Assembly (NCBI GenBank): GCA_964387425.1
Contig: CAYLXP010000004.1
Span: 4,246 to 68,245 of the forward strand
Direction of reading: 5' to 3'
Length of the DNA stretch: 64,000 bases
Origin: an uncultured Victivallales bacterium
GTDB taxonomy: Bacteria > Verrucomicrobiota > Kiritimatiellia > UBA8416
This document shows, piece after piece, positions 2,184 to 28,843 of the stretch. How positions within the stretch are numbered: position 1 is the stretch's first letter; every line of letters begins with the position of its first letter. Both the position numbers and the translations under genes were made by a program. Below the pieces are notes generated by a model, which had not been told where the DNA came from, ran no database searches, and saw only the letters and a program-made list of their open reading frames with translations.

Positions 2184-2484
2184 CTTTCGGTTCACACTCA
2201 ATCCTGATCGTCGACAGTACCTAGATCATCAGCGACATCAATTGGCGGTCACCCCGTGGGTGAATCCCGGTCGGGCCGGAGGCCCAACCCTACCAGCACC
2301 AATTGGTAGGGCTGAGCCTCTGGCTCGGCCGTCAGCGCGTAGCCTGCATTGGCACGCTCTGCGGAGATTTGGCGATTCCGCCTAGATCCCCCTTTTTCGT
2401 TGCCTACAATCTGTTAGCATAGAAAGCACGTGTATGTCGACAGGCGGTGCCGCCGCCGATGATTGCTGTGAGATAGGAGATGCT

Positions 2485-3921: not shown

Positions 3922-4001
3922 GTTCATGCTATGGCCGTGTCGAGTCTTACCGAGAGTGAAGGCTTGAATGTGGACCCGTTCCATTGGATAATGCCAGCAT
4001 C

Positions 4002-4214
4002 ATGAAGATCATCGTGAAAGAAGATGGAGAAGGATTTCTGGCCCGGGTTCGCGGCTCGGATAACCTTTTTGCCTATGGTCTGACTCGCGAGGAGGCTCTC
4101 GACGAGCTATCCGGCGTCATCGAGATGACAATGGACTATCATCTCGAGCAGATCGATATCGAGCGTCGAGCCCGGCAGGAGTTACTGACGAATCGGGCCG
4201 CATATGCCGTATAA
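4002..4214 (+). CDS. hicB: HicB-family antitoxin (UPF0150-like)
   Basis: MKIIVKEDGEGFLARVRGSDNLFAYGLTREEALDEL is HicB-like. The track start at 3984 is a TTG; the in-frame ATG at 4002 is more plausible. It overlaps the downstream hicA by 11 nt. Confidence 0.6.
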   Translation: MKIIVKEDGEGFLARVRGSDNLFAYGLTREEALDELSGVIEMTMDYHLEQIDIERRARQELLTNRAAYAV

Positions 4215-4413
4215 GTATAGGGATATCGAGAGACGGCTTCTCAAGCTCGGCTACAAGATCGTCCGCCAGAAGGGCTCCCACGTCCTGTTTTCCAACGGTG
4301 CGACCACGTTTCCCGTCCCGCGTCACGGAGGCCGGGATATCTCCCCCGGTGTCGAACGGCAGATTCTGAAGCTTCTACGCATCAGCAAAGACGCATTCAG
4401 AGAACTGGGATGA
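4204..4413 (+). CDS. hicA: HicA-family toxin (YcfA-like mRNA interferase)
   Basis: A 69-aa protein with KGSHVLF, a HicA-type motif, and the basic small-protein character typical of HicA. Confidence 0.65.
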   Translation: MPYKYRDIERRLLKLGYKIVRQKGSHVLFSNGATTFPVPRHGGRDISPGVERQILKLLRISKDAFRELG

Positions 4414-4429
4414 TCAGGTTGCGTATAGT

Positions 4430-5068
4430 ATGAAGCGATTGGAAATACCGAGGGTTGCGGATGTCGAGCTGTCGCTCGAGCATGCCGGCTGTCGCCTGGC
4501 TAACGAGCCACAGCACGCTGTCGACACGCTGAACTGGGCTGAGTTTCCGTACCGCCCACGCGTTTCGTTTGCCATCGCGTACGGCGGCGGCGACCTCTAC
4601 GTGCGCTTTGCTGTTGAGGAGGATGCCGTTTTGGCTGAGAAGACCGAAGCCAACGCTGCGGTTTCCCAGGATAGTTGTGTTGAGGTGTTTATTGCCCCGC
4701 ACTCGGACCTCTACTTCAGTTTCGAGTTCAATTGCATTGGAACGGTACTTGTCACGCGTGGCCACGGGCGGGAGGATCTCGAGTGTTTGGATCCAGAGGT
4801 CTTCAGGGGCATTCGCCGCGAGTCGTCCCTGGGGGCAGAGCCCTTCTCCGAGAGGCTGGGGGATACCTCCTGGCAGCTCACCGTCGCGATCCCGCTCGCG
4901 ATTCTCGGGCTCAATGAAGTCGACCTGCCGGGCTACTCATGTCGTGCCAACTTCTACAAGTGTGGCGACAACCTTTCGAAACCTCACTACGTGAGCTGGA
5001 GCCCCATCAACGCTCCAACCCCAGATTTCCACCGTCCGGAGTGCTTTGGCGCTGTTCGGTTCGTCTGA
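4430..5068 (+). CDS. hypothetical protein, possibly CBM9-like/DOMON-like carbohydrate-binding domain
   Basis: A 212-aa ORF with coding-like composition. Features such as FHRPECFG and the alternating beta pattern resemble CBM9_2-type proteins, but this is recalled from memory only. Confidence 0.35.
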   Translation: MKRLEIPRVADVELSLEHAGCRLANEPQHAVDTLNWAEFPYRPRVSFAIAYGGGDLYVRFAVEEDAVLAEKTEANAAVSQDSCVEVFIAPHSDLYFSFEFNCIGTVLVTRGHGREDLECLDPEVFRGIRRESSLGAEPFSERLGDTSWQLTVAIPLAILGLNEVDLPGYSCRANFYKCGDNLSKPHYVSWSPINAPTPDFHRPECFGAVRFV

Positions 5069-5108
5069 GGGTTGTCGCGTCGTCTCAAGGTGCGGACAAC
5101 CGGGTGGA

Positions 5109-6458
5109 TCAGTCGAACATGAGGCGGTAGCTCACTTGCGCAATTGTCTCTTCGATGTTGGCATCCTGTCCGTATCGCGCGCGCTCGGGGCGGGTGGAGT
5201 CGACCGCGAGGTACTCGAAGATGAGGCGGTGATGCTTCGAGATGGTGAACGTATAGGCCGCCATCCATGAGGTGCCATCTTCCGTGCTGTCGTCGTTGTT
5301 CGGAGGTAGGTTGACGGTTTGCCGAAGCGCCATGTCGCGGTCTTTGGCATCGAACCAGTCATGGCGCACGGAGACACGGTGTCTGCCCCAGGGCTTCGTG
5401 AGAAGCACGTATGCTGACCAGTAGTCGACGTCCACGGCGGCCGGACCTCCCATTCGGGTGTCGCCCTGCAGGTACTGCATCATCAAGGACGCATCGGCCG
5501 GCAGGAATAGTTCGGTCCCTACGCTGACGAACCGGGTCCGCCAGGCATACTGCGACCCGTCAAAAGCGGCCGGATCCCCCATGTTGTTGTAGTAAAGGAC
5601 GTTTGCCCGACCATAGTAGTCGAGCTCGGTAAAGCACCCCGTATAGAATCCCATGCGGTCGTCAATCTCCGTGAAGGGCTCGATCCACTGAACCTGCATC
5701 GGGAAGAGCCCGTCATCCTCGAACGCCTCGCGAGGGGGGAGGGCGAGCCGCTCGAATAGCCCGGTCTTGCGATCATGGAGCGACCAGCCGCGCCAGGCCA
5801 ACAGCGTTCCCGTCGGATCGTTGGCTGTGAAGATGGCGGCCAGGATTCCCTGGGTACTCTCGTCGCCCTTTCGCTGCAGGGTGGCTTCGCCACCGATGGT
5901 TCTTACCTCTTCGCCAATCCAGGAGTTGATTGCCGACGGCGTGATGGAGAACGGGCTGGTCCACGCGACCCCGTCGTTTTCGAGTGACACGGGCGGGAAG
6001 AAGGCCCCGAGGCGGCCCTTTAGCTGGAGGGAGGCGCGGGGGGCAGACTTGTACTTGAGGAATCCCTCGACAATGTCGACCCTCACGTCATCCGTATCGA
6101 AATCGAGCTTTGCGTGCAGGTCACCGGACCAGGACCAGCCGAACGGCACATCCAGAACAAGCGAGAGCTCGGCGAGGCGCGCCAGCGTATCGCTATCCGA
6201 TCCGGCCGTTCCGTCCCCGTATCGGAGTTTCCCGAGTCCCTCGTCCAGCCAGGTCTCGGTTGCGTCCACATGGAGCAAGCGTGCATCCATCAGCACGTGA
6301 TAGCCAATGTCGTCCACTACGCCATATACGCCGTGCCCGAGCAACAGCAGCAAGATCGCCACAATTCGGCCGGTTACACACGCCCTTTGCCGGCTCACAC
6401 CCACCAGATCTCTACTCACCCTGTTTCTCCTGTGCGCTTGTTTCTGGAGTGCCAGCAA
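5109..6458 (-). CDS. putative outer-membrane beta-barrel (porin-like) protein; start probably downstream of track start
   Basis: There is an alternating hydrophobic beta-strand pattern with aromatic-rich C-terminal strands (…IAQVSYRLMFD) and a signal-like N-terminus (…RQRACVTGRIVAILLLLLGHGVYG). The track start at 6458 overlaps the upstream EAL gene by 47 nt; a GTG near 6396 would remove the overlap. Confidence 0.4.
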   Translation of the reverse strand: MLALQKQAHRRNRVSRDLVGVSRQRACVTGRIVAILLLLLGHGVYGVVDDIGYHVLMDARLLHVDATETWLDEGLGKLRYGDGTAGSDSDTLARLAELSLVLDVPFGWSWSGDLHAKLDFDTDDVRVDIVEGFLKYKSAPRASLQLKGRLGAFFPPVSLENDGVAWTSPFSITPSAINSWIGEEVRTIGGEATLQRKGDESTQGILAAIFTANDPTGTLLAWRGWSLHDRKTGLFERLALPPREAFEDDGLFPMQVQWIEPFTEIDDRMGFYTGCFTELDYYGRANVLYYNNMGDPAAFDGSQYAWRTRFVSVGTELFLPADASLMMQYLQGDTRMGGPAAVDVDYWSAYVLLTKPWGRHRVSVRHDWFDAKDRDMALRQTVNLPPNNDDSTEDGTSWMAAYTFTISKHHRLIFEYLAVDSTRPERARYGQDANIEETIAQVSYRLMFD

Positions 6459-8829
6459 TACCCCAGGGGGAGTCCCGTAGCCAGCCCTCGAATTCGCTCA
6501 CGGGTAAGGGACGGCTGAAGAAATAGCCTTGTGCGAGGTCGCACCCGAACTCCGACAGCAATCTCAGGGCATGCTCGTCTTCGACCCCTTCCGCAATGAC
6601 CCTGAACCCCAGGTTATGCCCCATTTCAATCGTAGAGCGCACGATTACGGCATCTTCACGGCTCTGCGACAGCTCCATCACGAAGGACTTGTCGATCTTG
6701 ATCTCATGGACCGGCAGCTTTTTGAGATACGCCACCGATGAGTAGCCCGTGCCGAAATCATCGATGGAGAGTATGATCCCCATTGCATTGAGCTGCCTGA
6801 GCATGTCCATTGCTTTCTGCATGTCCTGCATGACGGCGCTCTCCGTAATCTCGAGAATCAGCCAATCCGGCTGCATATCGTGTTGGCTCAGCAATTGCCC
6901 TATGCGGTCGGTCAGCTTTGCGTCAAGAAGGTCCTTTGCCGAGAGGTTGACTGCAACCTTGATGGGATAGCCGTTCTTGTGCCACGTGCTGCACTGCTGC
7001 ATGGCCGTTGCCAGACTGAAGCTCGTGATGCGATCAATGTTGCCGGTCTGCTCCGCAAGCGGAATGAACGTATCGGGGAACACGAAGCCGCTGTCGGGTT
7101 GCTCCCAACGGATCAAGGCTTCTGCGTGTGTGATGCGTCTCGTCTTCAGGCAGATCTTGGGTTGGTAGAAGAGCTGGAACTCGCCGTCCTCAAGGCCCCG
7201 GCGCATCTTCCCCATGAGAGAGAGTCGCTCGGTGCTGTGGGAATCGGTATCCGGAGCGTACACGGCATACCGGACGGGGGACTGCCTGGCATGGTAGAGG
7301 GCCACGTCCGCATGCTGCATGAGCAGTTTCACGGTTTCCCCGTGCAGGGGGTAACATGCCACACCGACATGGGCGTTCACGTCCGCGGCGACATCATCAA
7401 TCCGAAATGGTGCGTCGAAGCATTTCAGGACGTCCCGGGACACGGTCTCGGCATGGTCCGCGTTCATGCCCGGTACGAGTAACATGAACATGTCCGTCGC
7501 AATGCGCGTCACGGGTTCGACCCGCGTGATGCCCTCCGACAACCGTGTGGCAATTTGCTGGACAATCTTGTCGCCGAGTCTATGTCCCAGTGTGCCGTTG
7601 ATCTCGTCGATGCGGTCGAGACCGATAAGCACCACCCCGAGTGGTGTGTTCGGGTTGGTGTCCTTCTGAATGGTCTCTTGTAGAATCTCCTCGAAGCTGA
7701 GCCGGTTTGGCAGACCGGTTAGAGCGTCGTGGTGGGTTTGGTGGTATATCTTCTGCTCCCGCTGCCGGATGCCCGCCATCATGTGGTTGAAACCGTCCGC
7801 CAGGTGCCCCAGTTCGTCGGCCTGCCTGACGGTCACTGGCGTCTCGTAATCCCCGGAGCGGATGCGTCCGGCAGCCTGCGAGAGCGATAGAACAGGTTGC
7901 GTAACACCTCGGGCGATCCACACGCCTGCGGCCAGGACTACTGCCAGGCAGAGCGATGAGAACAGAAGTAGCCACTTCAGCATTGCGCGATACGGGGCCA
8001 TCGCGCGGTCGAGTGAGCACTGCAGAATAGCAAATGCGTCCAGGCTGTTCTCCGGTGTTGGAAGCGGCCGGAAGAGCGCGATACAGCGTTCAGTCCCCAG
8101 CTCCATTCTCGTTGGACGTGCCGGTGCGAAGTTTGGCCAGTCGGCGAGCGCAATATCGGTGCGTCCCGCCGCACCAAGCGTAGAACCCGCGAGGTGGATT
8201 GCCCCGTTTTCGTCGATGGAGCCGAAGCTGATGTCCAGGTCGAATGACGACTGCTGCTTCATGAGCAGGGCCAGCCGATCGTCCACGGCGAACCCTATGC
8301 CGATGCCGGCAATCGGCAACGGAGCCAGAACGGGGGCCATGGCGAACTCGTAGATGACGTTATTCAACACCAACGTGGAGGCTGCCGAGTCGCCCTGGTC
8401 GACAACGTCAACCATGTTTGCGAAAGGAAACTCGTCGGTATGACCTTCCGGTCGTCCGATGTCGGCGACAATCTCGCTCTCGAGGGATACCACCATGGCG
8501 CGATCCGCGTTCATGCGCTCGATCAGGCTGACGAGGGCTGAGCGAATCGTCGCACGGTCGTCGGTCGCGACTGCGGTTCGGAACCCGTGGTCTGCAGAGA
8601 GCACACTGGTCTCTCTCTTCATGCTGGCAGACCTGCTCTCCAACTGGAGCGTGAACGTCTCGCTGGTGTGCAGGAGTTGACGCTCTATCTCGGCAGCCAT
8701 GTTGCGCGTAATGGTCCTGTGAACCAGCGTGGACGTGACAACCTGGAGAATCGTGACGAGGCCGATGAAGAACACGATCAACTTGAAGCGGAACGTCCGG
8801 TAAACAGGAATGGTGATGCTGGAAGCCAT
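6412..8829 (-). CDS. membrane sensor c-di-GMP phosphodiesterase: periplasmic sensor-HAMP-degenerate GGDEF-EAL
   Basis: An N-terminal TM helix, a roughly 270-aa periplasmic region, a second TM helix (LLLFSSLCLAVVLAAGVWIA) and a HAMP-like segment are followed by a GGDEF-like domain. Its signature is replaced (…RIATDMFMLLVP instead of GGDEF/GGEEF). The EAL domain is intact, with EALIRW, DDFGTGYSS and KIDKSFV. Confidence 0.85.
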   Translation of the reverse strand: MASSITIPVYRTFRFKLIVFFIGLVTILQVVTSTLVHRTITRNMAAEIERQLLHTSETFTLQLESRSASMKRETSVLSADHGFRTAVATDDRATIRSALVSLIERMNADRAMVVSLESEIVADIGRPEGHTDEFPFANMVDVVDQGDSAASTLVLNNVIYEFAMAPVLAPLPIAGIGIGFAVDDRLALLMKQQSSFDLDISFGSIDENGAIHLAGSTLGAAGRTDIALADWPNFAPARPTRMELGTERCIALFRPLPTPENSLDAFAILQCSLDRAMAPYRAMLKWLLLFSSLCLAVVLAAGVWIARGVTQPVLSLSQAAGRIRSGDYETPVTVRQADELGHLADGFNHMMAGIRQREQKIYHQTHHDALTGLPNRLSFEEILQETIQKDTNPNTPLGVVLIGLDRIDEINGTLGHRLGDKIVQQIATRLSEGITRVEPVTRIATDMFMLLVPGMNADHAETVSRDVLKCFDAPFRIDDVAADVNAHVGVACYPLHGETVKLLMQHADVALYHARQSPVRYAVYAPDTDSHSTERLSLMGKMRRGLEDGEFQLFYQPKICLKTRRITHAEALIRWEQPDSGFVFPDTFIPLAEQTGNIDRITSFSLATAMQQCSTWHKNGYPIKVAVNLSAKDLLDAKLTDRIGQLLSQHDMQPDWLILEITESAVMQDMQKAMDMLRQLNAMGIILSIDDFGTGYSSVAYLKKLPVHEIKIDKSFVMELSQSREDAVIVRSTIEMGHNLGFRVIAEGVEDEHALRLLSEFGCDLAQGYFFSRPLPVSEFEGWLRDSPWGIAGTPETSAQEKQGE

Positions 8830-11796: not shown

Positions 11797-11826
11797 TTGT
11801 CCTTAGACGCGGCATCCCCATATACT
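11797..11826 (+). promoter_or_regulatory. candidate sigma70-like promoter (TTGTCC-N18-TATACT) upstream of the FGE-fusion gene
   Basis: Found by eye about 85 nt upstream of the preferred ATG at 11911. The track's ORF start at 11797 is the TTG of this hexamer. Confidence 0.25.
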
Positions 11827-11910
11827 CTGCCTATGCTAAATGGGGTGTTTGCAGGAACGGTTGGCGATGGGGAAGTTGTGTCGACCTTCAGAGAGAAACG
11901 GATCTGGACT

Positions 11911-14900
11911 ATGAGAATTATCTTGATGATGGGTGTTTTGTGCGGGGCTGCCGTGATTTCGCAGGCAGCGGAGACGGTAAAGGGGCGGTATGTCCGCGTG
12001 GAGTTGCCGGGTGACGGACGCTATCTCTCCCTGTCGGAGGTGGAGGTCTTCTCGGGTCGCAAGAACATCGCTCCGAAAGGGAAGGCAACGCAGTCATCGC
12101 TCTGGGGTCGCGGCGTAGCGCAACTCGCGATTGATGGCAACACGTCGGGGGAATATGGCGACGGAACGATCACGCACACCGCGAAGAGCACCAACCCGTG
12201 GTGGGAGCTCGACCTGGGGCGGGAGACTGATGTCTCAAAGGTCACGGTTTGGAATCGCGCCAGCATCGGAGAGCGGCTAGACGGTTTTCGCTTGTTGGTG
12301 CTGGACGCCAGTCGCTCACAGACACTGACGGCTTCTGTTCCCAAGGCGGGTCGGAAGATGGATATCGCTACGGACGGAACCGTCAAGACGACGTCAGTTA
12401 AGACTGTGCCCAGCAAGAACTCCGCGGCAAAGGGGCTGGCCGCGCACATTGCCGTGTTTGATCCCGATGCCATGGTTCGTGCCATCAAGGACATGGCGGC
12501 AACCTGGCCGGAGCGTTTCAAGGACGTCGATGAGCTGTTGGCAGGAGTCGAGAAGTGCCGGGCGTTGAAAGATGATGCGTCAAAGGCGGAGGAGATTCTC
12601 GCCTTCCAACGCGAAGTCCTAACGCGCAACCCGCTTCTGGACTTTGATGAGCTACTGTTCGTTCGCCGTGACACCAAAATGTTCGGCAAGTCCCTGCCCG
12701 CTAACTGGCAGAGTAATTCAAGCATTTCGAAGACCGGCTACGACAACGAGATTGCTGTGCTGTCGATCCGTGAACCCGAGAAGACGCGTCAGCTTCACCG
12801 GCCTGACGGCGGGGCCTACGTCGGGGAGGTCGATCTTCATTTCAATGCCGACAAGATGCTCTTCTCATCCATTGGGGAGAATGGCGCCTGGCATGTGTTC
12901 GAAATCGGGGCGGACGGAAAAGGCCTGCGGCGTGTGACGCAGACAACCGAAGTGAACGTGAACAACTACGACCCCTGCTATCTTCCGGACGGACGCATCC
13001 TGTTCACCTCCACGGCTCCGATGGTCGCGGTGCCGTGCGTGAATGGAAACTCGCCGGTCGCGACGCTTTTCATCTCCGACAAGAACGGTGGGGACATGCG
13101 CCAGCTCTGTTTCGATCAGGAGCACAGCTGGAGTCCGCAGGTGATGGCCGACGGACGTGTTCTCTATCAGCGCTGGGAGTATGCCGACCTGGCGCACTCG
13201 AACTCCCGTATTCTCTTCACGATGAATCCTGATGGCACGAATCAGCGCGCAATCTATGGCTCCAACTCGTGGTGGCCGAACTCCTGTTTCTATGCCCGGC
13301 CTGTACCGGGGCATCCCTCCCTGATCGTGGGCATTGTGACGGGGCACCACGGATGCCGCCGGATGGGCGAGCTTGTGCTGTTTGATACCTTCAAGGGGTA
13401 CATGGAAGCCGACGGCGTGGTTCAGCGTATCCCCGGCTACGGCAAGCCGGTTGATCCCAAGGTCGCCGACCGACTCGTCAACGGTAGCTACCCGCTTTTC
13501 CTGCATCCATACCCTTTGAGTGACAAGTACTTCCTTGTCTCCGCTGAGATCTCGAAAGGCGAGTGGGGGATCTATCTTGTCGACGTCTTTGACAACATGA
13601 CGCTCATCAAGAGTGAGCCGGGCTACGCCTTGCTCGAACCCGTGCCACTGCAGAAGACCAAGATGCCTCCCGCGCGACCGGACAAGGTTAACCTGGAGAG
13701 CAAGGATGCCACGGTGTTTATCTCGGACATCTATGAAGGCCCGGGGCTTGAGGGCATTCCTCGCGGTGTGGTCAAGAAGCTGCGTGTCTACACCTACACC
13801 TTTGGATACAACCAGATCGGAGGCTTGCTTGGCACGATTGGCGCCGATGGCCCGTGGGACATGCGCCGCATTCTTGGGACCGTGCCAGTGGAGTCCGATG
13901 GCTCAGCCGCATTCACGGTTCCCGCGAACACGCCGCTTGCGCTCCAGCCTCTTGACGACGAGGGCAAAGCTCTGCAGGTGATGCGCAGCTGGTTTACCGC
14001 CATGCCCGGTGAGAACCTCTCCTGCATCGGCTGCCACGAGCCGCCCGACGCCGGCCCGCCCGTGCGCCGTTCCATCGCCGCGCAGAAAGCGCCCTCCAAG
14101 ATCACGCCATGGTACGGACCGGCCCGGAACTTCGAGTTTGCCCGCGAGGTGCAGCCCGTTCTCGACCGCTACTGCGGCGGCTGCCACGACGGGGAACCCC
14201 GCGACGACGGCAAACAGCTTCCTAGCCTGCGTGGAGACCGCAGTGTCAAGTTCGTGTCCAAAACACCGGGCAGCAGAGGGGCGACATTCTCGGAAGCTTA
14301 TGTCTCCCTGCACGGCTACCTGCGTCGTCCGGGTGAAGAGAGCGGCATGCGTCTGCATAGCCCGATGGAGTTCCACGCGGATAACACTGAGCTGTTCATG
14401 ATGCTCAACAGCGGCCATCACGGGGTGGAGCTTAGCGCAGAGGCCATGGACCGGCTCATCACGTGGTTCGATCTCAACGCGCCCTTCTATGGGCGCTGGT
14501 CCGAATATGGCCACACTCCCGCTGCGGCAAAGGAAGCGGAACGTGCCGAGATGCGTGCCCGCTACGCGAATGTCCATGAAGACCACGAGCACATTGATGA
14601 TGCTCCGCCATCCAAGGTGGAGTTCATCCGCCCCAAGCGCGTACAGCCCAAGGCGGAGGAGAAGGTCTCTTGCTCTGTAGCGCGGGCTCCGCGGGAAGAA
14701 GCCAGGACGCTGGATCTGGGTAACGGCGTCTCTTTGAGTCTGTCGTACGTGCCTGCAGGCAAGCTGTCGAAGGGGGCGAAGGCCGAGGAATTCAAGAGAG
14801 GCTTCTGGATGGGGAGCTACGAGATCACCAACGAGCAGTTCCGCCAGTTCGACCCGGCACACGATAGCATGGAGGAACCGCGGCACGGCTACCAGTTCGG

Positions 14901-15483
14901 CATTACCGGCTATCCCGTCAACGACCCCGACCAGCCGGCCGTGCGGCTTTCGTGGCAGCAGGCCGCCGCCTTCTGCCGGTGGCTCTCGGATAAGAGCGGT
15001 AAGAGCGTCTCGCTGCCTTCCGAGGCGCAGTGGGAGTGGGCTTGCCGCGCGGGGGCATCGACGCCGTTTAGCTTTGGCGAGCTCGACGCCGACTTCACCG
15101 AGTACGCAAACCTCGCGGACGAGACTCTAGTCTGGTTCATCGGCGATCCCTATACGCAGGATCCTGCTGCCGGCTACCAGAAATCCCTCAAGCGATACAA
15201 GGAGCTCAAGGGATCCGACAACGACTGGATTCCGCGCTCCGATCTGAACGACGGCGGTTTTGTTTCCGAGCCGGTTGGCAAGTACAAGCCCAACGCCTGG
15301 GGACTATACGATATGCACGGCAACGTTGCGGAGTGGACTGCTTCGGATGCGAACGGTCAAAAGATCGTGCGCGGCGGTTCGTGGTACGATCGTCCCAAGT
15401 ACGCCACAGCCACTTTCCGCCGTCCATATCGCGACTACCAGCGTGTCTACAACGTTGGATTCCGTGTCGTGGTGGAAGAGTAA
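11911..15483 (+). CDS. secreted multidomain protein: F5/8 type C domain, PD40/TolB-like beta-propeller, two CxxCH haem-c motifs, C-terminal FGE-sulfatase (SUMF1-like) domain
   Basis: A signal peptide MRIILMMGVLCGAAVISQAAE begins at ATG 11911; the track start at 11797 is a TTG. The discoidin-like stretch GRYVRVELPGDGRYLSLSEVEVFSG is followed by propeller-type repeats (…DGRILFTS…, …DGRVLYQRWEY…, …MNPDGTNQRAIYG…). Two CxxCH motifs, LSCIGCHE and YCGGCHDGE, lie about 45 aa apart. The C-terminal FGE domain contains GFWMGSYEITNEQFRQF, WEWACRAG and HGNVAEWT…GGSWYD. Confidence 0.75.
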   Translation: MRIILMMGVLCGAAVISQAAETVKGRYVRVELPGDGRYLSLSEVEVFSGRKNIAPKGKATQSSLWGRGVAQLAIDGNTSGEYGDGTITHTAKSTNPWWELDLGRETDVSKVTVWNRASIGERLDGFRLLVLDASRSQTLTASVPKAGRKMDIATDGTVKTTSVKTVPSKNSAAKGLAAHIAVFDPDAMVRAIKDMAATWPERFKDVDELLAGVEKCRALKDDASKAEEILAFQREVLTRNPLLDFDELLFVRRDTKMFGKSLPANWQSNSSISKTGYDNEIAVLSIREPEKTRQLHRPDGGAYVGEVDLHFNADKMLFSSIGENGAWHVFEIGADGKGLRRVTQTTEVNVNNYDPCYLPDGRILFTSTAPMVAVPCVNGNSPVATLFISDKNGGDMRQLCFDQEHSWSPQVMADGRVLYQRWEYADLAHSNSRILFTMNPDGTNQRAIYGSNSWWPNSCFYARPVPGHPSLIVGIVTGHHGCRRMGELVLFDTFKGYMEADGVVQRIPGYGKPVDPKVADRLVNGSYPLFLHPYPLSDKYFLVSAEISKGEWGIYLVDVFDNMTLIKSEPGYALLEPVPLQKTKMPPARPDKVNLESKDATVFISDIYEGPGLEGIPRGVVKKLRVYTYTFGYNQIGGLLGTIGADGPWDMRRILGTVPVESDGSAAFTVPANTPLALQPLDDEGKALQVMRSWFTAMPGENLSCIGCHEPPDAGPPVRRSIAAQKAPSKITPWYGPARNFEFAREVQPVLDRYCGGCHDGEPRDDGKQLPSLRGDRSVKFVSKTPGSRGATFSEAYVSLHGYLRRPGEESGMRLHSPMEFHADNTELFMMLNSGHHGVELSAEAMDRLITWFDLNAPFYGRWSEYGHTPAAAKEAERAEMRARYANVHEDHEHIDDAPPSKVEFIRPKRVQPKAEEKVSCSVARAPREEARTLDLGNGVSLSLSYVPAGKLSKGAKAEEFKRGFWMGSYEITNEQFRQFDPAHDSMEEPRHGYQFGITGYPVNDPDQPAVRLSWQQAAAFCRWLSDKSGKSVSLPSEAQWEWACRAGASTPFSFGELDADFTEYANLADETLVWFIGDPYTQDPAAGYQKSLKRYKELKGSDNDWIPRSDLNDGGFVSEPVGKYKPNAWGLYDMHGNVAEWTASDANGQKIVRGGSWYDRPKYATATFRRPYRDYQRVYNVGFRVVVEE

Positions 15484-18000: not shown

Positions 18001-18012
18001 CCGTGGGCTAGC

Positions 18013-19521
18013 TCAGTGTCGAGTCTTTGCCTTCTTGCCACCCTTGCCCTTGTTCGGAACCCACCGGAAGTCCTCACCCTCACAGACGAGTCGGATTTCC
18101 TTGCGTTTGGGACCCTTGCCTTGTGGTGCGGGGTCGCTCGGGATGATGGTTCCCATCCTCTTCTTGATGGGAGCATACTCCGGGTTTGCTGCAAGATTGT
18201 TCCATTCGTTGGGGTCGTTGCGTTGGTCGTAAAGCTCCTCGCCATCAGGGCGCGAGATGTAGCGCCAGTTGCGGTTGACGACACTGTACTGATCGTGATC
18301 GGTGGTGATGACCATGCGGTCCTTGGCCCCGTCGGGATTGCCAAAGACGGGAACCAGGCTCTTCCCGTCGATATCGGGATTGGCAGGTAGCTGGCAGAGA
18401 TCGGTCAGGGTCTTGTAGGTGTCGATCAGCCCAACCGTAACGTCGAGCTTCTTGCCTTTCGGAATGCCGGGGCCGGCCCAGATGAACGGCACGTTGGTCG
18501 TGCGCTCCCAGAGCGTATGCTTGGCCCAGCGGGTCTTCTCACCAAGGTGGTAGCCATTGTCGGACCAGAGCACGACGACCGTGTTGTCAGCATAGGGCGA
18601 CGCCTCGAGTGCATCGAGTACACGGCCCAGCATGGCGTCGGTATACGTGCAGGCGGCAAAGTACCCCTGCATCGCCTTCTTCCACAGGCCGTGCTCGACG
18701 AGAGGATCATGCACCTTGCGTCCGCGGCCCTCGGTCTGGCGGCGGATTGCCGGCGGGAGGTCGTCAAGATCGTCCGCCTTGAAGGGCGGCAATTGGATAC
18801 TCTCCAGCGGATACATGTCGAAGTACTTCTTCGGTGCGTAGTTAGGTTTGTGTGGTGCGTAGGTCCCGAATGCGAGGAAGAAGGGCTTGTCGTGCTCTTG
18901 TTTCAGGAAGTCTGCAGCCCAGTTAGCGCATAGCGTGTCGGCCATCCTCTCTTCGTCTTCGTTCGGCATGGCGAAGTGGTCAAACTCCGGCCAGCCGGTC
19001 ACCTTGCCGGTCTCCGCCAGCGGACGCACTGCCTTGGCGTCGATCGGCGCCCCGGGATCCCATGAGCCCAGGCGCCAGCCCTTCTGCTTGAGATCCTCGT
19101 TCCAGATGTACCAGTAGTCGAAGCCGCGCAGGTCGACGAAACCCTGCATGTGGTGATAAACCTTGCCGCCTCCGTAGACCTTGTAGCCGTTGGCCTTGAA
19201 GTACTGGGGAATATCCATGTGCTTCGGAATGTTGTACATGTGCGGTTCTTCGCCGTAGAGGCCGGAGTTGAAGGGCTGCAGACCGGTCATGATGGCTGTA
19301 CGCGACGGCGTGCAGTAGACACCCGGAGCATGGGCATTTGTGAACACGGTTCCGCGCGCCGCGAGCTTGTCGAGGTTAGGCGACTTCACCCGCGGGTCGC
19401 CCATCGCGTTCATCATGTCGTTCCAGTCATCAACAACAAGGAAGAGAACATTGGGGTGGGGGGCGGCTTGGGCTGCTATTCCGAGAAGAAGTACCAGTAA
19501 CAGGCTAAGTCTCACCATCAT
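18013..19521 (-). CDS. arylsulfatase (type I sulfatase, FGly-dependent), secreted
   Basis: A signal peptide is followed by NVLFLVVDDWND (metal-binding start) and the sulfatase signature C-x-P-x-R within VYCTPSRTAIMTGL, so it needs Cys-to-formylglycine maturation. Confidence 0.9.
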   Translation of the reverse strand: MMVRLSLLLVLLLGIAAQAAPHPNVLFLVVDDWNDMMNAMGDPRVKSPNLDKLAARGTVFTNAHAPGVYCTPSRTAIMTGLQPFNSGLYGEEPHMYNIPKHMDIPQYFKANGYKVYGGGKVYHHMQGFVDLRGFDYWYIWNEDLKQKGWRLGSWDPGAPIDAKAVRPLAETGKVTGWPEFDHFAMPNEDEERMADTLCANWAADFLKQEHDKPFFLAFGTYAPHKPNYAPKKYFDMYPLESIQLPPFKADDLDDLPPAIRRQTEGRGRKVHDPLVEHGLWKKAMQGYFAACTYTDAMLGRVLDALEASPYADNTVVVLWSDNGYHLGEKTRWAKHTLWERTTNVPFIWAGPGIPKGKKLDVTVGLIDTYKTLTDLCQLPANPDIDGKSLVPVFGNPDGAKDRMVITTDHDQYSVVNRNWRYISRPDGEELYDQRNDPNEWNNLAANPEYAPIKKRMGTIIPSDPAPQGKGPKRKEIRLVCEGEDFRWVPNKGKGGKKAKTRH

Positions 19522-19595
19522 ATATCTCCCATTATGTGAGCGTGACTAAATAGAACTGTCGACACTCGTCCCTAAGATTCGGAACCGGTGCGGCT

Positions 19596-21680
19596 CTAGC
19601 GGCAGAGCGCATATTGTCTTGGCTCAGCTTGGCCCTCTAGAACCGAGAGAGCCCCGGCGGCCATCGCTTCCATTTCCATGCCGTCCTTGAAGATGATGAT
19701 CTGGGCCAAGTGCCCAACGCGCTTCTTCAGAGTGGCGACGATGCGGTCTGAGCTTGCCATGTTGCCCGTGAGAACGATGGCGTCGACGGGGCCGTCAATG
19801 GCGATGTGCATGGCCCCGATCTCCTTGGCAATCTGGTAGATCATGGCGTAAACAGCCTTCTCGGCCTCTTCATCTCCATCCTGGATGCGCTTCTCAATCT
19901 CCGGTAACGAGTCTTCTCCGATGTAGGACACCAGGCCCGCGCGTTTGGTCAGCTCTTGCTTGAGGGCGACCTTGTCAAACTCGCCGCTGTAGCACAGGTC
20001 GATCAACTCGTTCTGGGGCAGTGTGCCGGCGCGCTGCCGCGTGAAGGGCCCTTCGCCGAGCAGTGCGATGGTGTTGTCCACGATTCTTCCATGTTTGACT
20101 GCTGCCACGGAGATGCCATCCCCGATGTGCGCAAGCAGGAAGCTGGATCGATCGAATGGGCGGCCAATCATGGCAGCGGCTTTTTGGGCCGACGCCCGAA
20201 TGCTCAGAATGTGCCCGGTGCTCTTGCGTTCGATCGGGGCATAGCCGGAGTAGCGGGCCTCCTCCTTTAGTTCATCCGAAACGACTGGATCGACAGAGAA
20301 CGCGGGGATCTTGTAGTGGTGCGCGAGCCGCGCGGCAATCGGAATGCCCAGGTTGGATGCATGATCCATCTCGGCATAGTCACGCACGGCGCTGACTATG
20401 TCCTTCTCTTCGTGGACCTCGCCATTCTCAACCGAGCAGACCTGGTATACGCCGCCCTTGATGCGCTGGTTCTCCCTGTTGAGGAAACCGCCGCGTCCCA
20501 CGACGGCGTCTAATGCGGGTAAGTCGTCGGTCAGAAAGCCCTGGATTTGCTCGACATAGCGTTCGACCTCTTCGTCCATTGCGCTGCCTGTGAGTCCGGA
20601 AACGTGAGGCCTTGCCACCTCGAACTTCTTCAGGCAGTGGCGGTTCTCGAAGAGGGCGAGTTTCGTGGATGCGGCGCCCGGGTTGATGGTGAGGATGTGG
20701 TGGGCCTCCCGCACCTCGGCGGCAGGCGAAGCGCCCGCTTGCTCGGCCTGCTTCCGGAGGTAGTTTGAGTAGATACAGGCGAGGGCAATTGAATCGATCT
20801 TTGATCGTTCGGGATCCGACCGCGATGAAATCACGTAAGGGGTCTTGATGCCCACCGTGACACAGGCCATGCGGGCCGTCTGTTTTGCCACCATACGCAT
20901 GAGCATCTTGTACATGATGTTGGCGGCATCCAGGGTGGGGTTCACGAGAATATCCGCCTGGCCGGCAACCTGGCGCATGGGGGAGTCTGCGGGGCCGTCC
21001 AGTTTCTTCAAGCGGACGGATTCGGGGTCGACGGAAAGGTCGAAAGACAGGGGCCCGTACACAACAGCGTTATCCCAGTGCGCGCTCGCCAGTTCATGGG
21101 CGAGTACCGTGGAGGGGAGGGCCTGCATCACCTTCTCGTTGCCGGCCAGGAGTGCCACCCTGGGCAAAGGAAGGTTCAGGGCGCACTGTGCAACTTCGAC
21201 GGCATTGTCGATCAGTCCAGTCATGCGACTGTAGTTGAGAATGGCCGACACGCCCGGGTCGGTCATGACCATGGGGACTCCATCGCGAATACAGTCCGCC
21301 TGGAAGACCGTGGCGAGTGACATGGTATCGCGTGTGCGAAGCTTCACGAGTTGGCGATTCAGAATAGGAGTGGAGATATTCCCTTTCTGGATGACATTCG
21401 TTCTGCCAGATCGGGCAAGCTCCAGGATGGTCTCTGCGGTCTGCTCCTGGGAATCCGTACCCACAATATCGGCGGTGGGAATTTCGAGCTCCAACCGGGA
21501 TGCCGCTGCAAGCATGTCTTTCTCATTGCCGACAAGAACGCACTGCTTGACATACGGTTTGTCCCGCACGTTGCGATAGAGAAGTAGGTCGCCTTCGCGA
21601 TCCCCGCCCGCAATCGCGATTGTCTGAGGGGTCAGTGATTCGGCGATGCTTTCGAATTGCGCAATTTCTGTGGCGGCCAT
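19596..21680 (-). CDS. fused phosphate butyryl/acetyltransferase (PTA_PTB domain) - butyrate kinase (Buk) protein, copy 1
   Basis: The N-terminal roughly 320 aa is Ptb/Pta-like (…DPGVSAILNY…VISSRSDPERSKIDSIALAC…). The C-terminal roughly 370 aa is butyrate-kinase-like (ILTINPGAASTKLALFEN…IVLTGNMASS…). The track start at 21845 adds a Pro-rich 55-aa extension and would overlap the ACT gene by 109 nt; ATG 21680 (MAATEIAQF) is preferred. Confidence 0.8.
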   Translation of the reverse strand: MAATEIAQFESIAESLTPQTIAIAGGDREGDLLLYRNVRDKPYVKQCVLVGNEKDMLAAASRLELEIPTADIVGTDSQEQTAETILELARSGRTNVIQKGNISTPILNRQLVKLRTRDTMSLATVFQADCIRDGVPMVMTDPGVSAILNYSRMTGLIDNAVEVAQCALNLPLPRVALLAGNEKVMQALPSTVLAHELASAHWDNAVVYGPLSFDLSVDPESVRLKKLDGPADSPMRQVAGQADILVNPTLDAANIMYKMLMRMVAKQTARMACVTVGIKTPYVISSRSDPERSKIDSIALACIYSNYLRKQAEQAGASPAAEVREAHHILTINPGAASTKLALFENRHCLKKFEVARPHVSGLTGSAMDEEVERYVEQIQGFLTDDLPALDAVVGRGGFLNRENQRIKGGVYQVCSVENGEVHEEKDIVSAVRDYAEMDHASNLGIPIAARLAHHYKIPAFSVDPVVSDELKEEARYSGYAPIERKSTGHILSIRASAQKAAAMIGRPFDRSSFLLAHIGDGISVAAVKHGRIVDNTIALLGEGPFTRQRAGTLPQNELIDLCYSGEFDKVALKQELTKRAGLVSYIGEDSLPEIEKRIQDGDEEAEKAVYAMIYQIAKEIGAMHIAIDGPVDAIVLTGNMASSDRIVATLKKRVGHLAQIIIFKDGMEMEAMAAGALSVLEGQAEPRQYALCR

Positions 21681-21736
21681 TTGAGTCACCTTCCCGTTCG
21701 AAGCCCCTTGCCGTTCAGGCTGAGGCTTTGCTGCCC

Positions 21737-22219
21737 CTACAGAGCGGTGATCGCGTAGACCTGGTCGACCAGGATCCCCTGCTTCTTCAGGCGGTGCAGG
21801 ATCGGGTCGAGCTGGTTTGGGGATCCCCCCAGGAAATACGTCCATCCCGTAGAATCGTTGTACATGAGTTCGCAGGTCAGGAAGGAACTCTCGCCTGCGA
21901 CGTCTTTCGGGGCCAGTTTGCGCTTGGTTTTGGTCACCACCGTCTTGCGGAGGTTGTCGCCGAGGTAGGGATGCTCTTCAACCTTCTTGACCTTGGATAG
22001 GCGACTCAGGATTCGCTTGATCGTCGCCTTTTCCTCTTCGGTACAAGTGAACGTAACCAGAACGGTGCCACCGCAGCCGGACGACGTGTCTGACCCGTGC
22101 CCTACAACCGAGTCGAGCGAGATGCTGCGGTTCGAGAACGCGGAGGCGATGCTAGTCAGGGCCCCTGCGCGGTCATCTACCCAGATGCGAATAAACCAAT
22201 GCTTGATTGCCTTGCTCAC
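21737..22219 (-). CDS. ACT-domain protein
   Basis: IRIWVDDRAGALTSIASAFSNRSISLDSV is an ACT-type regulatory fold motif. The protein is 160 aa, and its stop overlaps the upstream Ptb-Buk copy 2 start by 4 nt. Confidence 0.55.
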   Translation of the reverse strand: MSKAIKHWFIRIWVDDRAGALTSIASAFSNRSISLDSVVGHGSDTSSGCGGTVLVTFTCTEEEKATIKRILSRLSKVKKVEEHPYLGDNLRKTVVTKTKRKLAPKDVAGESSFLTCELMYNDSTGWTYFLGGSPNQLDPILHRLKKQGILVDQVYAITAL

Positions 22220-24336
22220 GACGAAACCCTCCTGTTCAAACTGTATTGCAGCGGCTTCTCCCTGCCGCTGAGAACCCGGCAGGCCCCCCTGGCCATGGCC
22301 ACCATTTCGAGCGATTCCCGGTATACTACGATGGGCCCCAGCGATGCGATGCGTCGACGGATACCACGGAGCAGGAGTGATGAGCGTACCATGCCGCCGG
22401 TCAGCACGATGGCTTCGACCTTGTGCTCCACGGCAGCGGCCATGGCCCCGATGTCCTTGGCTACCTGGTAAGCCATCGCTTCTACGACCCGCGCGGCCTT
22501 CTTATCACCACTTAGCGCTAATTCCCCAATTCTCTCCAGGCGATCGTCGCCGAGGTAAGAAACCAGTCCGCCCCGCTTGGTCAGTTCAGTGATTAGCTCG
22601 GCCTTGGACATGCCGCCGTCGTAGCACAGGTCGATCAGCTCCTTCTGCGGCACTCCCCCCGTCCTCTGTGGCGTGAAGGGACCCTCTCCGAGGAGCGCGA
22701 TGGTGTTGTCGATCATGCGTCCCTTGCGAATAGCTGCAATTGTGATTCCACCACCCAGATGCCCCACAACCACGTTTACCGCTTTCGGGTCGCGCTGGTT
22801 GTCCTCGGCAAACTGGTGCACGGCTGCCTTGATGCTCAGCGCGTGCGCCGTGCTCTTGCGCGTGATTCCGGCGTAGCCTGAGAGTTCTGCCTCGGGACAG
22901 AATTCATCAACGACCACGGGGTCCACGGCGTAGGCCGGCAGGGTGAGTCGCCGCGCATATGCCGCGGCCATGGGAATGCCCAGGTTGGATGCATGATCCA
23001 TCTCTGCGAACTCGGTTACCCCGCGCACGATGTCTTCCTGTACGCGCACCTTGTTCCGCTTGACGTCGGCCACCAGGTAGGTTCCGCCCTTGAGCTTGCC
23101 TTTCGGGCGTTTGAGGAATCCGCCGCGGCCCACGATGGCCGTGAGTCCTCGCACCTTGTGCTTGCGCAGAAAGGCGTCGACTTGTTCGATGCGTTCATCG
23201 ACTTCGGCCTGCAGGTCGCTGCCCGGCAGGAGCTTCGATGCGTAGGAGAGTTCCTGTTCGTGAAGGCAGGTGTCATTCTCGAAAACGGCTACCTTGGTGG
23301 ACGTAGAGCCAGGATTGATCGTCAGGATTCTCTGCGCTTTGGCAGCCTTCCGCTTTGCTGTCGCAACCCTTTCGCGGTGTCCCGTGCGTTCTGCATAGAC
23401 ACAGCACAGCGCGATTGAGTCGAGTTTGGTCTCGAGCGGGTCGGAGCGCGAGAGGATGCCGTAGGGGACTTCCACCCCCGTTGTGATTCCGGCCATGGAG
23501 GCATCCCCGTACTTGGCCATGGCCATGATGGTCTTGTAGACGGCGTTGGCCGTGTCGATCCCCGGGCATACCAGCACATCCGCCCGACCTGCCACCTGGC
23601 GCGCATTCCGGGAGGCAGGCATGCCCTTGCAGGAAACCGATTCCATATCTGTGGCCAGGTCAAACGACAGCGGACCGCACACGATCATGTCATTCCACTT
23701 GCGCTCGGCCAGTGCCGCGGCCATCACGGAAGAGTGAAGGGACGGGATAACTTTCTCGTTTGCGGAGAGCAGTGCAACACGCGGTTTCTCGATCCCGGTG
23801 ACGACCCGGCAAACGTCGGCGGCGCTCTCAATGAGGTCGATCAGGCGCCCGTAGGTGCATTCGGTTGTCACACCCGGGTCGGTAAGAAACATGGGGCGCC
23901 CGTCGGCCAGGGGTGCGGCGTCAAACATCGTCACCTGGCCCATGGTGTTGCGGACGCGCAGCTTGAGAATAGCCCGGCTGAGGGTGGGGGTGGAGATGTC
24001 GCCCTTGATGATGATGTCGGCACGACCCTTTCGTACCAAATCAACGGTCTTGGCGGCGGTTTCCTCGTCCGAGGCCGTGTTGAGAATATGGGATTCCGGA
24101 ACGTCAATCCCGACCTTGTGTGTGGCAACCCGGATACGGTCGGCATCGCCGATCAGCAGGCAGTCGCGGATGATGCCGTGGTCCCGGGCCGACTCGAGGA
24201 GCCTCAGGTCATCCTCTCGATGGCCGCCGGGGATGACGACGTTTTTCGGCGCCATCGCCCCGGCAACTTCGAGTAGATCAGAAACACCGGCGACCTTGGG
24301 AAGGTCGCCGGTGTTCCGGTTGTTCGTTTGAGTCAT
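22216..24336 (-). CDS. fused phosphate butyryl/acetyltransferase - butyrate kinase protein, copy 2
   Basis: It has the same architecture as copy 1: a Ptb-like N-terminal half, then RILTINPGSTSTKVAVFEN…AIVLTGGMVRSSLL in the Buk-like C-terminal half. It is a paralog of copy 1. Confidence 0.8.
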   Translation of the reverse strand: MTQTNNRNTGDLPKVAGVSDLLEVAGAMAPKNVVIPGGHREDDLRLLESARDHGIIRDCLLIGDADRIRVATHKVGIDVPESHILNTASDEETAAKTVDLVRKGRADIIIKGDISTPTLSRAILKLRVRNTMGQVTMFDAAPLADGRPMFLTDPGVTTECTYGRLIDLIESAADVCRVVTGIEKPRVALLSANEKVIPSLHSSVMAAALAERKWNDMIVCGPLSFDLATDMESVSCKGMPASRNARQVAGRADVLVCPGIDTANAVYKTIMAMAKYGDASMAGITTGVEVPYGILSRSDPLETKLDSIALCCVYAERTGHRERVATAKRKAAKAQRILTINPGSTSTKVAVFENDTCLHEQELSYASKLLPGSDLQAEVDERIEQVDAFLRKHKVRGLTAIVGRGGFLKRPKGKLKGGTYLVADVKRNKVRVQEDIVRGVTEFAEMDHASNLGIPMAAAYARRLTLPAYAVDPVVVDEFCPEAELSGYAGITRKSTAHALSIKAAVHQFAEDNQRDPKAVNVVVGHLGGGITIAAIRKGRMIDNTIALLGEGPFTPQRTGGVPQKELIDLCYDGGMSKAELITELTKRGGLVSYLGDDRLERIGELALSGDKKAARVVEAMAYQVAKDIGAMAAAVEHKVEAIVLTGGMVRSSLLLRGIRRRIASLGPIVVYRESLEMVAMARGACRVLSGREKPLQYSLNRRVSS

Positions 24337-27969: not shown

Positions 27970-27995
27970 CTATCGTCCTCCCGTGTTTGCTGATT

Positions 27996-28742: not shown

Positions 28743-28843
28743 CACTGCCCTCCTTTTTGTCAACGCGTGTCCTTGCCGCACGATGACCTGTTCCGATTGG
28801 ACCGAAATAGTAGTCACTACGCGAGTAGAAGGGAATAGAAGGA

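Follow-up and report, generated by a model that had tools for sequence, protein, structure and literature searches.

A stretch of 64,000 nucleotides from an uncultured Victivallales bacterium (contig CAYLXP010000004.1, positions 4,246 to 68,245), referred to here as the window, carries a gene at positions 11911..15483 of the forward strand that encodes a protein of 1190 aa. The initial annotation had described this product as a secreted fusion ending in a formylglycine-generating enzyme (FGE) domain, which could be part of a sulfatase-maturation system. The protein was best read as an exported c-type cytochrome of modular build, with two haems and a likeness to HzsA, that has a lectin at its N-terminus and a Cys-less FGE-fold domain at its C-terminus. 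Since this end domain lacked the copper-binding cysteines, the protein is very unlikely to be a formylglycine-generating enzyme. To judge from its sequence, it is a probable glycan-targeted redox protein.

The open reading frame (ORF) extended over 11797..15483 of the forward strand, and its first ATG, at 11911, gave 1190 aa plus the stop codon in the six-frame ORF list. The gene and its parts were defined from this list, the translation, Pfam and an AlphaFold2 model computed from an alignment of 74 family sequences (predicted local distance difference test, pLDDT, 85; predicted template modelling score, pTM, 0.79), in which part of the lectin domain had low confidence. Five parts were recognized: an F-type lectin, a helical linker, a six-bladed propeller, two CxxCH haem-c sites and a C-terminal PF03781 (FGE-fold) domain. 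When only matches above the curated Pfam cut-offs were counted, the protein contained an F5_F8_type_C/NedA-like domain (aa 59-169), HZS_alpha (PF18582; aa 619-710, E 6e-32) and FGE-sulfatase (PF03781; aa 955-1187, E 1e-29), and a weak match to Cytochrome_CBB3 was seen as well. The helical linker (aa 169-237, 12415..12621, forward strand) was modelled as four helices with pLDDT above 90, and the conservation of the family started there. Hence, the initially proposed fusion of a discoidin domain, a beta-propeller, two CxxCH motifs and an FGE fold was confirmed by the ORF, Pfam and Foldseek. Export was also borne out, as the N-terminus, read directly, resembled a Sec-type signal peptide (MRIILMMGVLCGAAVISQAA, 11911..11970, forward strand); the covalent attachment of haem c needs export. 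The identical protein, with the same neighbours, was carried by 17 metagenomic contigs.

The C-terminal domain (aa 955-1187, 14773..15471, forward strand) has an FGE fold, of the C-type-lectin-like kind, from which the copper-binding cysteine pair is missing. FGE needs two cysteines to bind copper (summarised in bioRxiv 10.1101/2021.05.21.445229). The human SUMF1 sequence used for comparison has the length (374 residues) and the cysteines (218, 235, 336, 341, 346 and 365) expected from the published numbering. In the MAFFT alignment, the SUMF1 segment GGSYMC336HRSYC341YRYRC346 corresponded to GGSW---YDRPKYATATFR, so that C336 fell in a three-residue deletion, C341 was aligned to the invariant Pro1162 and C346 to an alanine. 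The loop C336...C341 of SUMF1 was thus replaced by a W-x-D-R-P loop, three residues shorter (GGSWYDRPKYATATFR, nt 15373-15420, forward strand). The whole protein had 14 cysteines, the last of them at residue 1045, and the copper-binding pair was therefore absent.

The loss was not peculiar to this gene. The pair was missing from both copies of the family in the window, and the second one (30937..34515) did not even have the structural cysteine of the motif "EWAC". A C-x4-C pair in the FGE loop was found in none of the 152 family members surveyed, the loop having no cysteine in 73, one in 76 and two in 3 of them. Taken together, the lack of any cysteine beyond residue 1045, the loop alignment and the family survey showed that the catalytic cysteines and copper ligands of FGE were absent from the domain, and a haem-coupled, O2-independent sulfatase-maturation enzyme, as first suggested, was not supported. 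It is very unlikely that the product of 11911..15483 matures sulfatases. The fallback proposed with it, that the FGE fold may be re-used for another chemistry as in PvdO, was supported. The closest solved sequences to the domain were PorK/GldK (E 1e-17), followed by PvdO (5e-15) and human FGE (5e-12). In the Foldseek search, PvdO (5HHA) was the best match (E 4e-12), then a variable protein of a diversity-generating retroelement (DGR) and then the true FGEs, with E values of 1e-10 to 1e-8 for the enzymes from human, S. coelicolor and T. curvata. Asp1160, in the replacement loop, was considered as a catalytic residue and rejected, given that this GGSW-x-D loop is also found in PorK, which is a structural protein.

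A different relationship was found for the central part of the protein. By far the best match of the model in the Protein Data Bank (PDB) was HzsA, the alpha subunit of hydrazine synthase (HZS) (Foldseek, 5C2V chains D/A, E 4e-27, 787 aligned columns), with a TM score of 0.61 normalised to HzsA and a sequence identity of 17%. In the model, aa ~200-900 form a complete structural homologue of HzsA, with its propeller, its middle domain (haem alpha-I site) and its C-terminal domain (haem alpha-II site). The resemblance to HzsA that had been noticed for the propeller and the two haem motifs thus extended over the full length of that protein. The beta-propeller (aa ~240-610, 12628..13740, forward strand), equivalent to the N-terminal domain of HzsA, was assigned by its Foldseek matches to 5C2V chains A/D and to TolB; it carries the superfamily-invariant RW[E/D]YxD (421-426) and H479-H480, which are also kept in paralogues devoid of the FGE-like domain. 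It was followed by the HZS_alpha middle domain with haem site 1 (13765..14040, forward strand), in which C705-I-G-C708-H709 (nt 14023-14037, forward strand) provides the CIGCH motif at aa 705-709. The phmmer alignment of this segment to 5C2V_A paired SCIGCHEPPDAG with ICSGCHYGSYRG of HzsA, and the upstream Q689-x-M691-R692-S693 was invariant in the family and in the FGE-less paralogues. The second haem domain (14107..14508, forward strand), the equivalent of haem alpha-II, was recognized by its alignment to HzsA and by the weak Cytochrome_CBB3 match mentioned above. Its site, C755-G-G-C758-H759 (nt 14173-14187, forward strand), forms the CGGCH motif at aa 755-759, and in the aligned segments (RNFEFAREVQPVLDRYCGGCHDGE versus RTVDFRRDIQPILDAKCAMCHDSN of HzsA) both the CxxCH and the flanking motif were conserved. 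Haem alpha-II of HzsA has two His ligands; here, H836 (nt 14416-14418) was invariant across the superfamily and is a candidate distal ligand of haem 2.

The two CxxCH motifs were located where they had first been read, about 45 aa apart, with 45 residues between 705-709 and 755-759. They cannot be attributed to chance, as was indicated by shuffling, by a scan of the frames in the window and by their conservation in the family. Shuffled versions of the protein had a mean of 0.003 CxxCH each, and two or more occurred in 1 of 200,000 shuffles; when the six frames of the window were scanned for open frames of 100 codons or more, CxxCH was only present in this gene and its paralogue. The pair was found in all of the 156 family sequences examined, with a spacing of 49-53 residues in 154, and the spacing was exactly 50 residues in 119 of the 120 best matches. 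Both motifs were invariant in the 74-sequence alignment, so their conservation in orthologues, on which the initial proposal depended, was verified.

Conservation was strong from residue ~240 to the C-terminus, and in the 120 closest homologues 239 positions showed a conservation of 95% or more. When FGE-bearing members were compared with FGE-less paralogues, the invariants shared by the whole superfamily were R421-W-[E/D]-Y-x-D426, D441-G442, H479-H480, D663-G-S665, Q689-x-M691-R-S693, E701, both CxxCH, E710, Y797, H836 and W852-x-D854. Other residues were invariant in the FGE-bearing members only, among them H429, R433, Y461, R484, H822 and H860.

At the other end of the protein, the domain initially labelled as discoidin (aa 22-165, 11974..12405, forward strand) is predicted to be, more specifically, an F-type, that is, a fucose-binding, lectin. 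The F5/8-C type itself was confirmed by Pfam (F5_F8_type_C, NedA-like), and the phmmer search against the PDB gave FBP32 (3CQO) with an E value of 8e-40, together with Sm-hPAF, the Streptococcus fucolectin-related protein and the eel agglutinin 1K12. When the domain was aligned with FBP32 and Sm-hPAF, the His...Arg...Arg fucose triad proved to be kept as H-x26-R-x5-R (aa ~87-121). This module was not constant in the family. In a tally of the best 120 matches, spot-checked on selected family members, the N-terminal module was NPCBM in 43, of the F5/8-C type in 29, CBM6 in 4, LamG in 2 and DUF4960 in 1, and approximately 40 had no recognized one. Judged by these domain assignments, the N-terminal glycan-binding module has been exchanged between family members. 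Such interchangeable modules point to a carbohydrate target, and not to the unfolded polypeptide of a sulfatase.

The family is a very large, uncharacterised and PVC-centred one (PVC: Planctomycetes, Verrucomicrobia and Chlamydiae). At E<=1e-10, the full protein as a query matched more than 3,098 sequence clusters (90% identity). An exhaustive search of 50%-identity cluster representatives with the HzsA-like core (aa 230-900) gave 6,466 at E<=1e-3, 3,945 at E<=1e-10 and 1,504 at E<=1e-30. Among the best 150 core matches, 122 spanned the sequence up to and including both haem motifs; of these, 104 (85%) had the FGE-like domain, most of the rest being truncated fragments. The distribution was scanned in a collection with one genome per species, and the groups given here are those among the matches listed, of which the best was ~51% identical. 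Full-length members were present in Planctomycetota (Pirellulaceae, Phycisphaerae, Isosphaeraceae, Thermoguttaceae), Verrucomicrobiota (Opitutaceae, Limisphaerales), Kiritimatiellia (including a metagenome-assembled genome, MAG, from sheep rumen), Lentisphaerota, Victivallales, Hydrogenedentota, Armatimonadota, Tannerellaceae and Bacteroidales. The occurrence of the family in strictly anaerobic lineages, such as the sheep-rumen Kiritimatiellae, Tannerellaceae and Victivallales, as well as in aerobic ones, such as Isosphaeraceae and Opitutaceae, argues against a reaction obligately dependent on O2. Full-length members were also seen on contigs of MAGs labelled Nitrospiraceae/Nitrospirales (L001, L014, L015), outside the PVC-centred range, as a result of either horizontal transfer or mis-binning. 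The PVC origin of the window itself was corroborated by its UvrC (41961..43430), which was 64-65% identical to UvrC of MAGs of Kiritimatiellia, Verrucomicrobia and Lentisphaerae.

The individual domains, the non-anammox HzsA homologues and members of this family in public databases are known already. Hagglund et al. (2025; PMC12758564) sorted non-anammox HzsA homologues from Planctomycetota and other phyla into clades I-IV; these have no assigned function, and their haem alpha-I is ligated by the canonical His. That study took only co-localised alpha/beta-gamma pairs, and its supplementary match table includes a 1110-aa "SUMF1/EgtB/PvdO family" protein (PMC12758564). The family studied here is widely mis-annotated as FGE, even in the strictly anaerobic Kiritimatiellia. 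In the cultured Kiritimatiellota, which ferment glycans anaerobically, one anaerobic sulfatase-maturing enzyme (anSME) is accompanied by many PF03781 genes, a combination that was called paradoxical (van Vliet et al.; PMC6388578); in the description of Pontiella the PF03781 genes were counted as FGEs and treated as sulfatase activators (PMC10880615).

The second full-length paralogue of the window was detected by tblastn and by its Pfam HZS_alpha and FGE-sulfatase domains. It is an ORF of 1192 aa (30937..34515, forward strand) whose likely start is M19, at nt 30991, and it was 44% identical to the first copy over aa 213-1190 (tblastn). Its CxxCH motifs were located at nt 33016-33030 and 33172-33186, there was no cysteine in its FGE loop, and in place of the lectin it had an unrecognized N-terminal domain of ~150 aa in which Pfam detected no lectin. 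Tandem family copies were also found at loci L001 and L017. The FGE-less paralogues (for example, L012 15358..18009) keep the propeller and the haem core. In a protein of 1976 aa (P0019), an FGE-bearing and an FGE-less HzsA-like unit were fused in one polypeptide, mirroring the adjacent paralogue pairs of L012 and L026; the fusion and these pairs together hint at a joint function of the two kinds.

When the genes around 38 full-length loci were clustered and a Pfam census was made, no conserved operon was found. The only recurrent gene, and the most frequent linked one (7 of the 38 loci), encoded an HzsBC-like protein, with a YVTN-type propeller and a CCP/MauG-type di-haem domain. A protein with this fusion was described by Hagglund et al. 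(PMC12758564), and some of the non-anammox HzsA homologues were reported there to be co-located with fused beta-gamma-like genes. In three loci the HzsBC-like gene overlapped the stop or start codon of its neighbour (L009, 1..1680/1677..5147; L013, 2189..4075/4072..7527; L012, 15358..18009/18009..19901), which points to coupled translation, as in a complex of the HZS type. Another HzsBC-like gene was found in L025 (6340..8379). In a neighbour-joining tree without support values, the partner-linked members were scattered over the family, and L025, a partner-linked locus from Kiritimatiellia, was the nearest sampled neighbour of the second window copy. As a separate observation, a small gene for a Mala_s_1-like/arylsulfotransferase-like beta-propeller followed the family member directly in L009 (5144..6100) and appeared again in L008 (18352..19365).

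The sulfatase that had drawn attention to the locus was indeed encoded 2.5 kb downstream, on the opposite strand (18013..19521, reverse strand; Pfam Sulfatase, E 7e-51). It is an S1 sulfatase of the formylglycine type, with a signal peptide and the motif C-T-P-S-R. We found no evidence that it is functionally linked to 11911..15483. In the census of immediate neighbours, which covered 39 loci and gave 137 Pfam families, sulfatases accounted for only 3 of 109 genes; they were present in 5 of the 38 loci, and none was found within 10 kb of an orthologue 84% identical to the protein. The proximity of the sulfatase was therefore a weak clue to function, and a sulfatase-linked operon was rejected, since nothing but the HzsBC-like gene, in 7 of the 38 loci, recurred. 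The radical SAM gene of the initial annotation stood as a sub-threshold match (Radical_SAM/Radical_SAM_N2) in an ORF cut by the edge of the window (3..2225, reverse strand) that contains the motif CPFRCNFC, but this N2-type match was not of the SPASM/anSME type. No recognizable anSME-type radical SAM gene, nor any other recognizable sulfatase-maturation gene, was found in the window.

The neighbours were variable across loci and included GH29, GH109-like, GH78, BNR, GH43 and GH20 (glycoside hydrolase, GH, families among them), GFO/IDH/MocA oxidoreductases and sulfatases. The 84% orthologue was surrounded by PIG-L, a glucosamine isomerase, an SSF transporter, a GH109-like gene and a sugar ABC transporter, and other members adjoined a GH78 rhamnosidase or a BNR sialidase-like gene. 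Around both copies in the window there were GH29 fucosidases, CBM9, LamG and PA14 proteins, GFO/IDH/MocA oxidoreductases (one of them with a twin-arginine translocation, TAT, signal) and GH20. The GH29 genes, one for an alpha-L-fucosidase of 1042 aa with CBM6/35 downstream of the paralogue (38611..41739, forward strand) and one with an F5/8-C domain (2434..3921), both assigned by Pfam, are consistent with a fucose-glycan utilisation neighbourhood.

On these data we hold, with moderate confidence, that the product of 11911..15483 is a glycan-tethered periplasmic haem-c redox module and not an FGE. Judging by the identity of the modules, the lectin, or NPCBM, CBM6 or LamG in the relatives, would anchor the protein, within the periplasm or at the surface of a polysaccharide-degrading cell, to one specific glycan. 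Haem 1 (H709, with ordinary His ligation) would lie at the interface of the propeller and the middle domain, beside RWEYxD, H479-H480 and QxMRS, and this cluster of invariant polar groups may be the site of the reaction or of electron hand-over. Haem 2 (H759, probably with H836) would relay electrons to or from a soluble partner. The FGE-fold domain would be a module for binding a ligand or a partner, and not a copper oxidase. In some relatives the protein may work with the adjacent HzsBC-like propeller and CCP/MauG-type di-haem protein, a pairing like that of HzsA and HzsBC; since there was no HzsBC-like gene in the window, any partner of the protein studied here would be encoded elsewhere.

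Several points weigh against this redox module. No HzsBC-like partner gene was present in the 64-kb window and, among its frames of at least 100 codons, no c-type cytochrome (CxxCH) other than the paralogue was found. We infer the binding of haem to the two CxxCH sites from the motifs and from homology. A purely architectural role of the FGE-like domain is possible, because it resembles the structural protein PorK. Glycan utilisation was the common theme of the neighbourhoods, but such genes are common everywhere in PVC genomes. Finally, literature searches found no paper that describes the architecture, or the function, of a carbohydrate-binding module (CBM) joined to an HzsA-like core and an FGE fold, and we know of no family member that has been studied experimentally.

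A more specific form of the same reading, in which the family would be a new class of glycan-targeted haem-c oxidoreductases, is tentative and seems to us rather unlikely. According to it, an HZS-type two-site machine, made of an alpha-like unit alone or together with a CCP/MauG-like beta-gamma unit, would have been re-used in the degradation or modification of polysaccharides, the swappable CBMs setting the target and the Cys-less FGE fold serving as a substrate or partner pocket. If this were true, the family would be the large non-anammox reservoir from which the alpha subunit of hydrazine synthase was recruited.

We consider it unlikely that the protein is a PvdO-type dehydrogenase, in which the Cys-less FGE fold would catalyze the two-electron oxidation of a glycan-linked or aromatic substrate and the two haems would remove the electrons. 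PvdO was the best structural match of the domain, and it is a periplasmic protein required for an oxidation which, when purified, contained no cofactor and was inactive; it was suggested to need an electron-transport partner, and cytochrome-c maturation was implicated (PMC6206403). A Rosetta-stone argument can be made from the fusion of the domain to a di-haem module, and the residues invariant only in FGE-bearing members also favor this reading. Nevertheless, on sequence the domain was nearer to the structural PorK/GldK, with the GGSW-x-D loop in common, it scored 73 bits against a cut-off of 500 in the NCBIfam model of PvdO, and no pyoverdine genes (pvdMNO/pvdP context) were found in the window. 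No catalysis by PvdO itself is known from work in vitro, and the FGE-less paralogues imply that the core of haems and propeller functions without the FGE-like domain. The model of PorK/GldK, ring lipoproteins of the type IX secretion system (T9SS), gave 74 bits against a cut-off of 350, with no T9SS genes nearby and no good lipobox at the N-terminus of the 1190-aa protein. The sulfoxide synthases EgtB and OvoA combine an N-terminal DinB_2 domain, which has a 3-His iron site, with an FGE-like domain. In the protein studied here, Pfam matched no DinB domain, and the EgtB and OvoA models gave 25-28 bits against cut-offs of 360-400.

An HZS-like enzyme of nitrogen oxides or hydroxylamine, which with an unlinked HzsBC-like partner would convert a small nitrogen species (NO, NH2OH) at haem 1, as HzsA does, appears improbable. 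The structural homology to HzsA over its full length, with both haem sites homologous, speaks for it, as do the HzsBC-like genes translationally coupled in several loci scattered over the tree. FGE-fold proteins such as NirV have, moreover, been tied to nitrite reduction (bioRxiv 10.1101/2021.05.21.445229). Ligands specific to HzsA, however, were not kept, and neither the glycan-binding modules of the protein nor its genomic surroundings fit: the modules are hard to square with an enzyme of small nitrogen oxides, and no nitrogen-cycle genes were found in any neighbourhood examined. Haem alpha-I of HzsA has Tyr591 as its iron ligand, and the His of the CxxCH is diverted to a Zn site with Cys303. 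The defining Tyr591 was replaced, corresponding to Asp713 (CIGCHEPPD versus CSGCHYGSY), and Cys303 was aligned to Pro469, in a weak segment of the alignment; the NCBIfam model hydrazine_alpha gave 54.8 bits against a cut-off of 800. These losses agree with the report that key HZS residues are unconserved in other non-anammox HzsA homologues (Hagglund et al.; PMC12758564).

A non-catalytic adhesin, scaffold or sensor of the cell envelope, with the lectin and the FGE fold binding ligands and the haems being structural or redox-reporting, is decidedly improbable. Cys-less FGE folds do bind or build in PorK/GldK, in immunity proteins of the type VI secretion system and in DGR variable proteins (bioRxiv 10.1101/2021.05.21.445229), and the gene stands alone, with no conserved operon. 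On the other hand, the ~240 positions that are at least 95% conserved, many of them polar and lying in the propeller and at both haem sites, are typical of an enzyme, HzsA is a catalytic subunit, and the coupling to a peroxidase-type di-haem partner is recurrent.

The weakest explanation, a periplasmic sulfatase maturation that is coupled to haem c and O2-independent, or linked to electron transfer, in which the FGE fold would bind CxPxR and the haems would take the two electrons released as Cys becomes formylglycine, is highly improbable: the PF03781 domain, the exported Cys-type sulfatase 2.5 kb away, the few loci with sulfatases, the lack of a recognizable anSME in the window and the Kiritimatiellia-like nature of the organism (a sulfatase-rich group whose cultured members are anaerobic; PMC6388578) are outweighed by the absence of the copper- and substrate-binding cysteines in both window copies and of the pair throughout the family, the greater likeness of the domain to PorK/GldK and PvdO than to FGE, the rarity of sulfatases as neighbours, with none near the 84% orthologue, the variable carbohydrate-binding N-termini, ill-suited to an enzyme acting on unfolded polypeptides, the FGE-less paralogues that retain the entire propeller and haem core, and the anSME already encoded by cultured Kiritimatiellales (PMC6388578).

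Other features of the window were also recorded. Downstream (3') of the second paralogue there were genes for a TAT-signal GFO/IDH/MocA oxidoreductase, a HEAT and PA14 protein and the large GH29 fucosidase, and upstream of it a regulator (28844..29782, forward strand) with the uncommon pairing of an IclR-type C-terminal ligand domain and an AraC-type HTH_18. Two adjacent proteins of ~700-750 aa (19596..21845 and 22216..24336, both on the reverse strand), earlier read as Ptb-Buk, consisted of PTA_PTB fused to a domain of the acetate/butyrate-kinase family, a fused and duplicated form that is unusual. A protein of 2165 aa (55781..62278, reverse strand) contained four lamin-tail domains, Big_7, DUF2341 and LamG, and two ORFs of 449 aa (5109..6458, reverse strand) and 293 aa (27957..28838, forward strand) had no Pfam match at E<=0.001.

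The redox module proposed here would correct a widespread annotation, and suggests a redox component in the glycan metabolism of the PVC bacteria. As the family has no copper ligands, part of the paradox of anaerobic Kiritimatiellota that carry FGE genes (PMC6388578) is removed, and counts of PF03781 in these organisms are unfit as evidence of their capacity for sulfatase maturation. The repeated fusion of a conserved two-haem protein to varied carbohydrate-binding modules suggests an unrecognized redox step, or an electron-transfer accessory, in the degradation of polysaccharides by PVC bacteria. Furthermore, complete HzsA-like units outside the anammox bacteria, sometimes coupled to HzsBC-like genes, widen the pool of hydrazine synthase relatives discussed by Hagglund et al. 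(PMC12758564).

Compared with known systems, the protein shares with HzsA of Kuenenia stuttgartiensis (5C2V/5C2W) the three-part unit, the homologous CxxCH sites and export. It differs by its N-terminal lectin and C-terminal FGE fold, which HzsA does not have, and HzsA belongs to an anammox context with HzsBC, whereas the window had neither an HzsBC gene nor such a context. The fusion to an FGE fold and the glycan-binding modules go unmentioned for the clades of Hagglund et al. (PMC12758564). The likeness to the F-type lectins (3CQO, 1K12 and the streptococcal one) consists of the alignment (E 8e-40) and the His/Arg/Arg triad. The animal lectins have a vicinal Cys pair that is absent from the domain, and F-type lectins occur elsewhere in lectin arrays or glycoside hydrolases, whereas here the lectin is joined to a redox protein. 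With FGE (SUMF1; 1Y1E, 2Q17, 6MUJ), the C-terminal domain has in common the fold, the Pfam family and the motifs WMG..EVTN, LPTEAEWE, HGNV.EWT, RGGS and GFR. The Cu(I) Cys pair and the partners of the structural disulfide are found in FGE and not in this domain, which also lacks an insert of ~20 residues present in the human enzyme and has another one; unlike FGE, it is fused to a cytochrome. PvdO (5HHA) and PorK/GldK (9MZU, 9OTS, 9MYJ) are, like this domain, periplasmic Cys-less FGE folds, and PorK shares its GGSW-x-D loop. These proteins act in a pyoverdine or T9SS context, which is absent here, where the domain is built into a cytochrome of 1190 aa as one of its modules.

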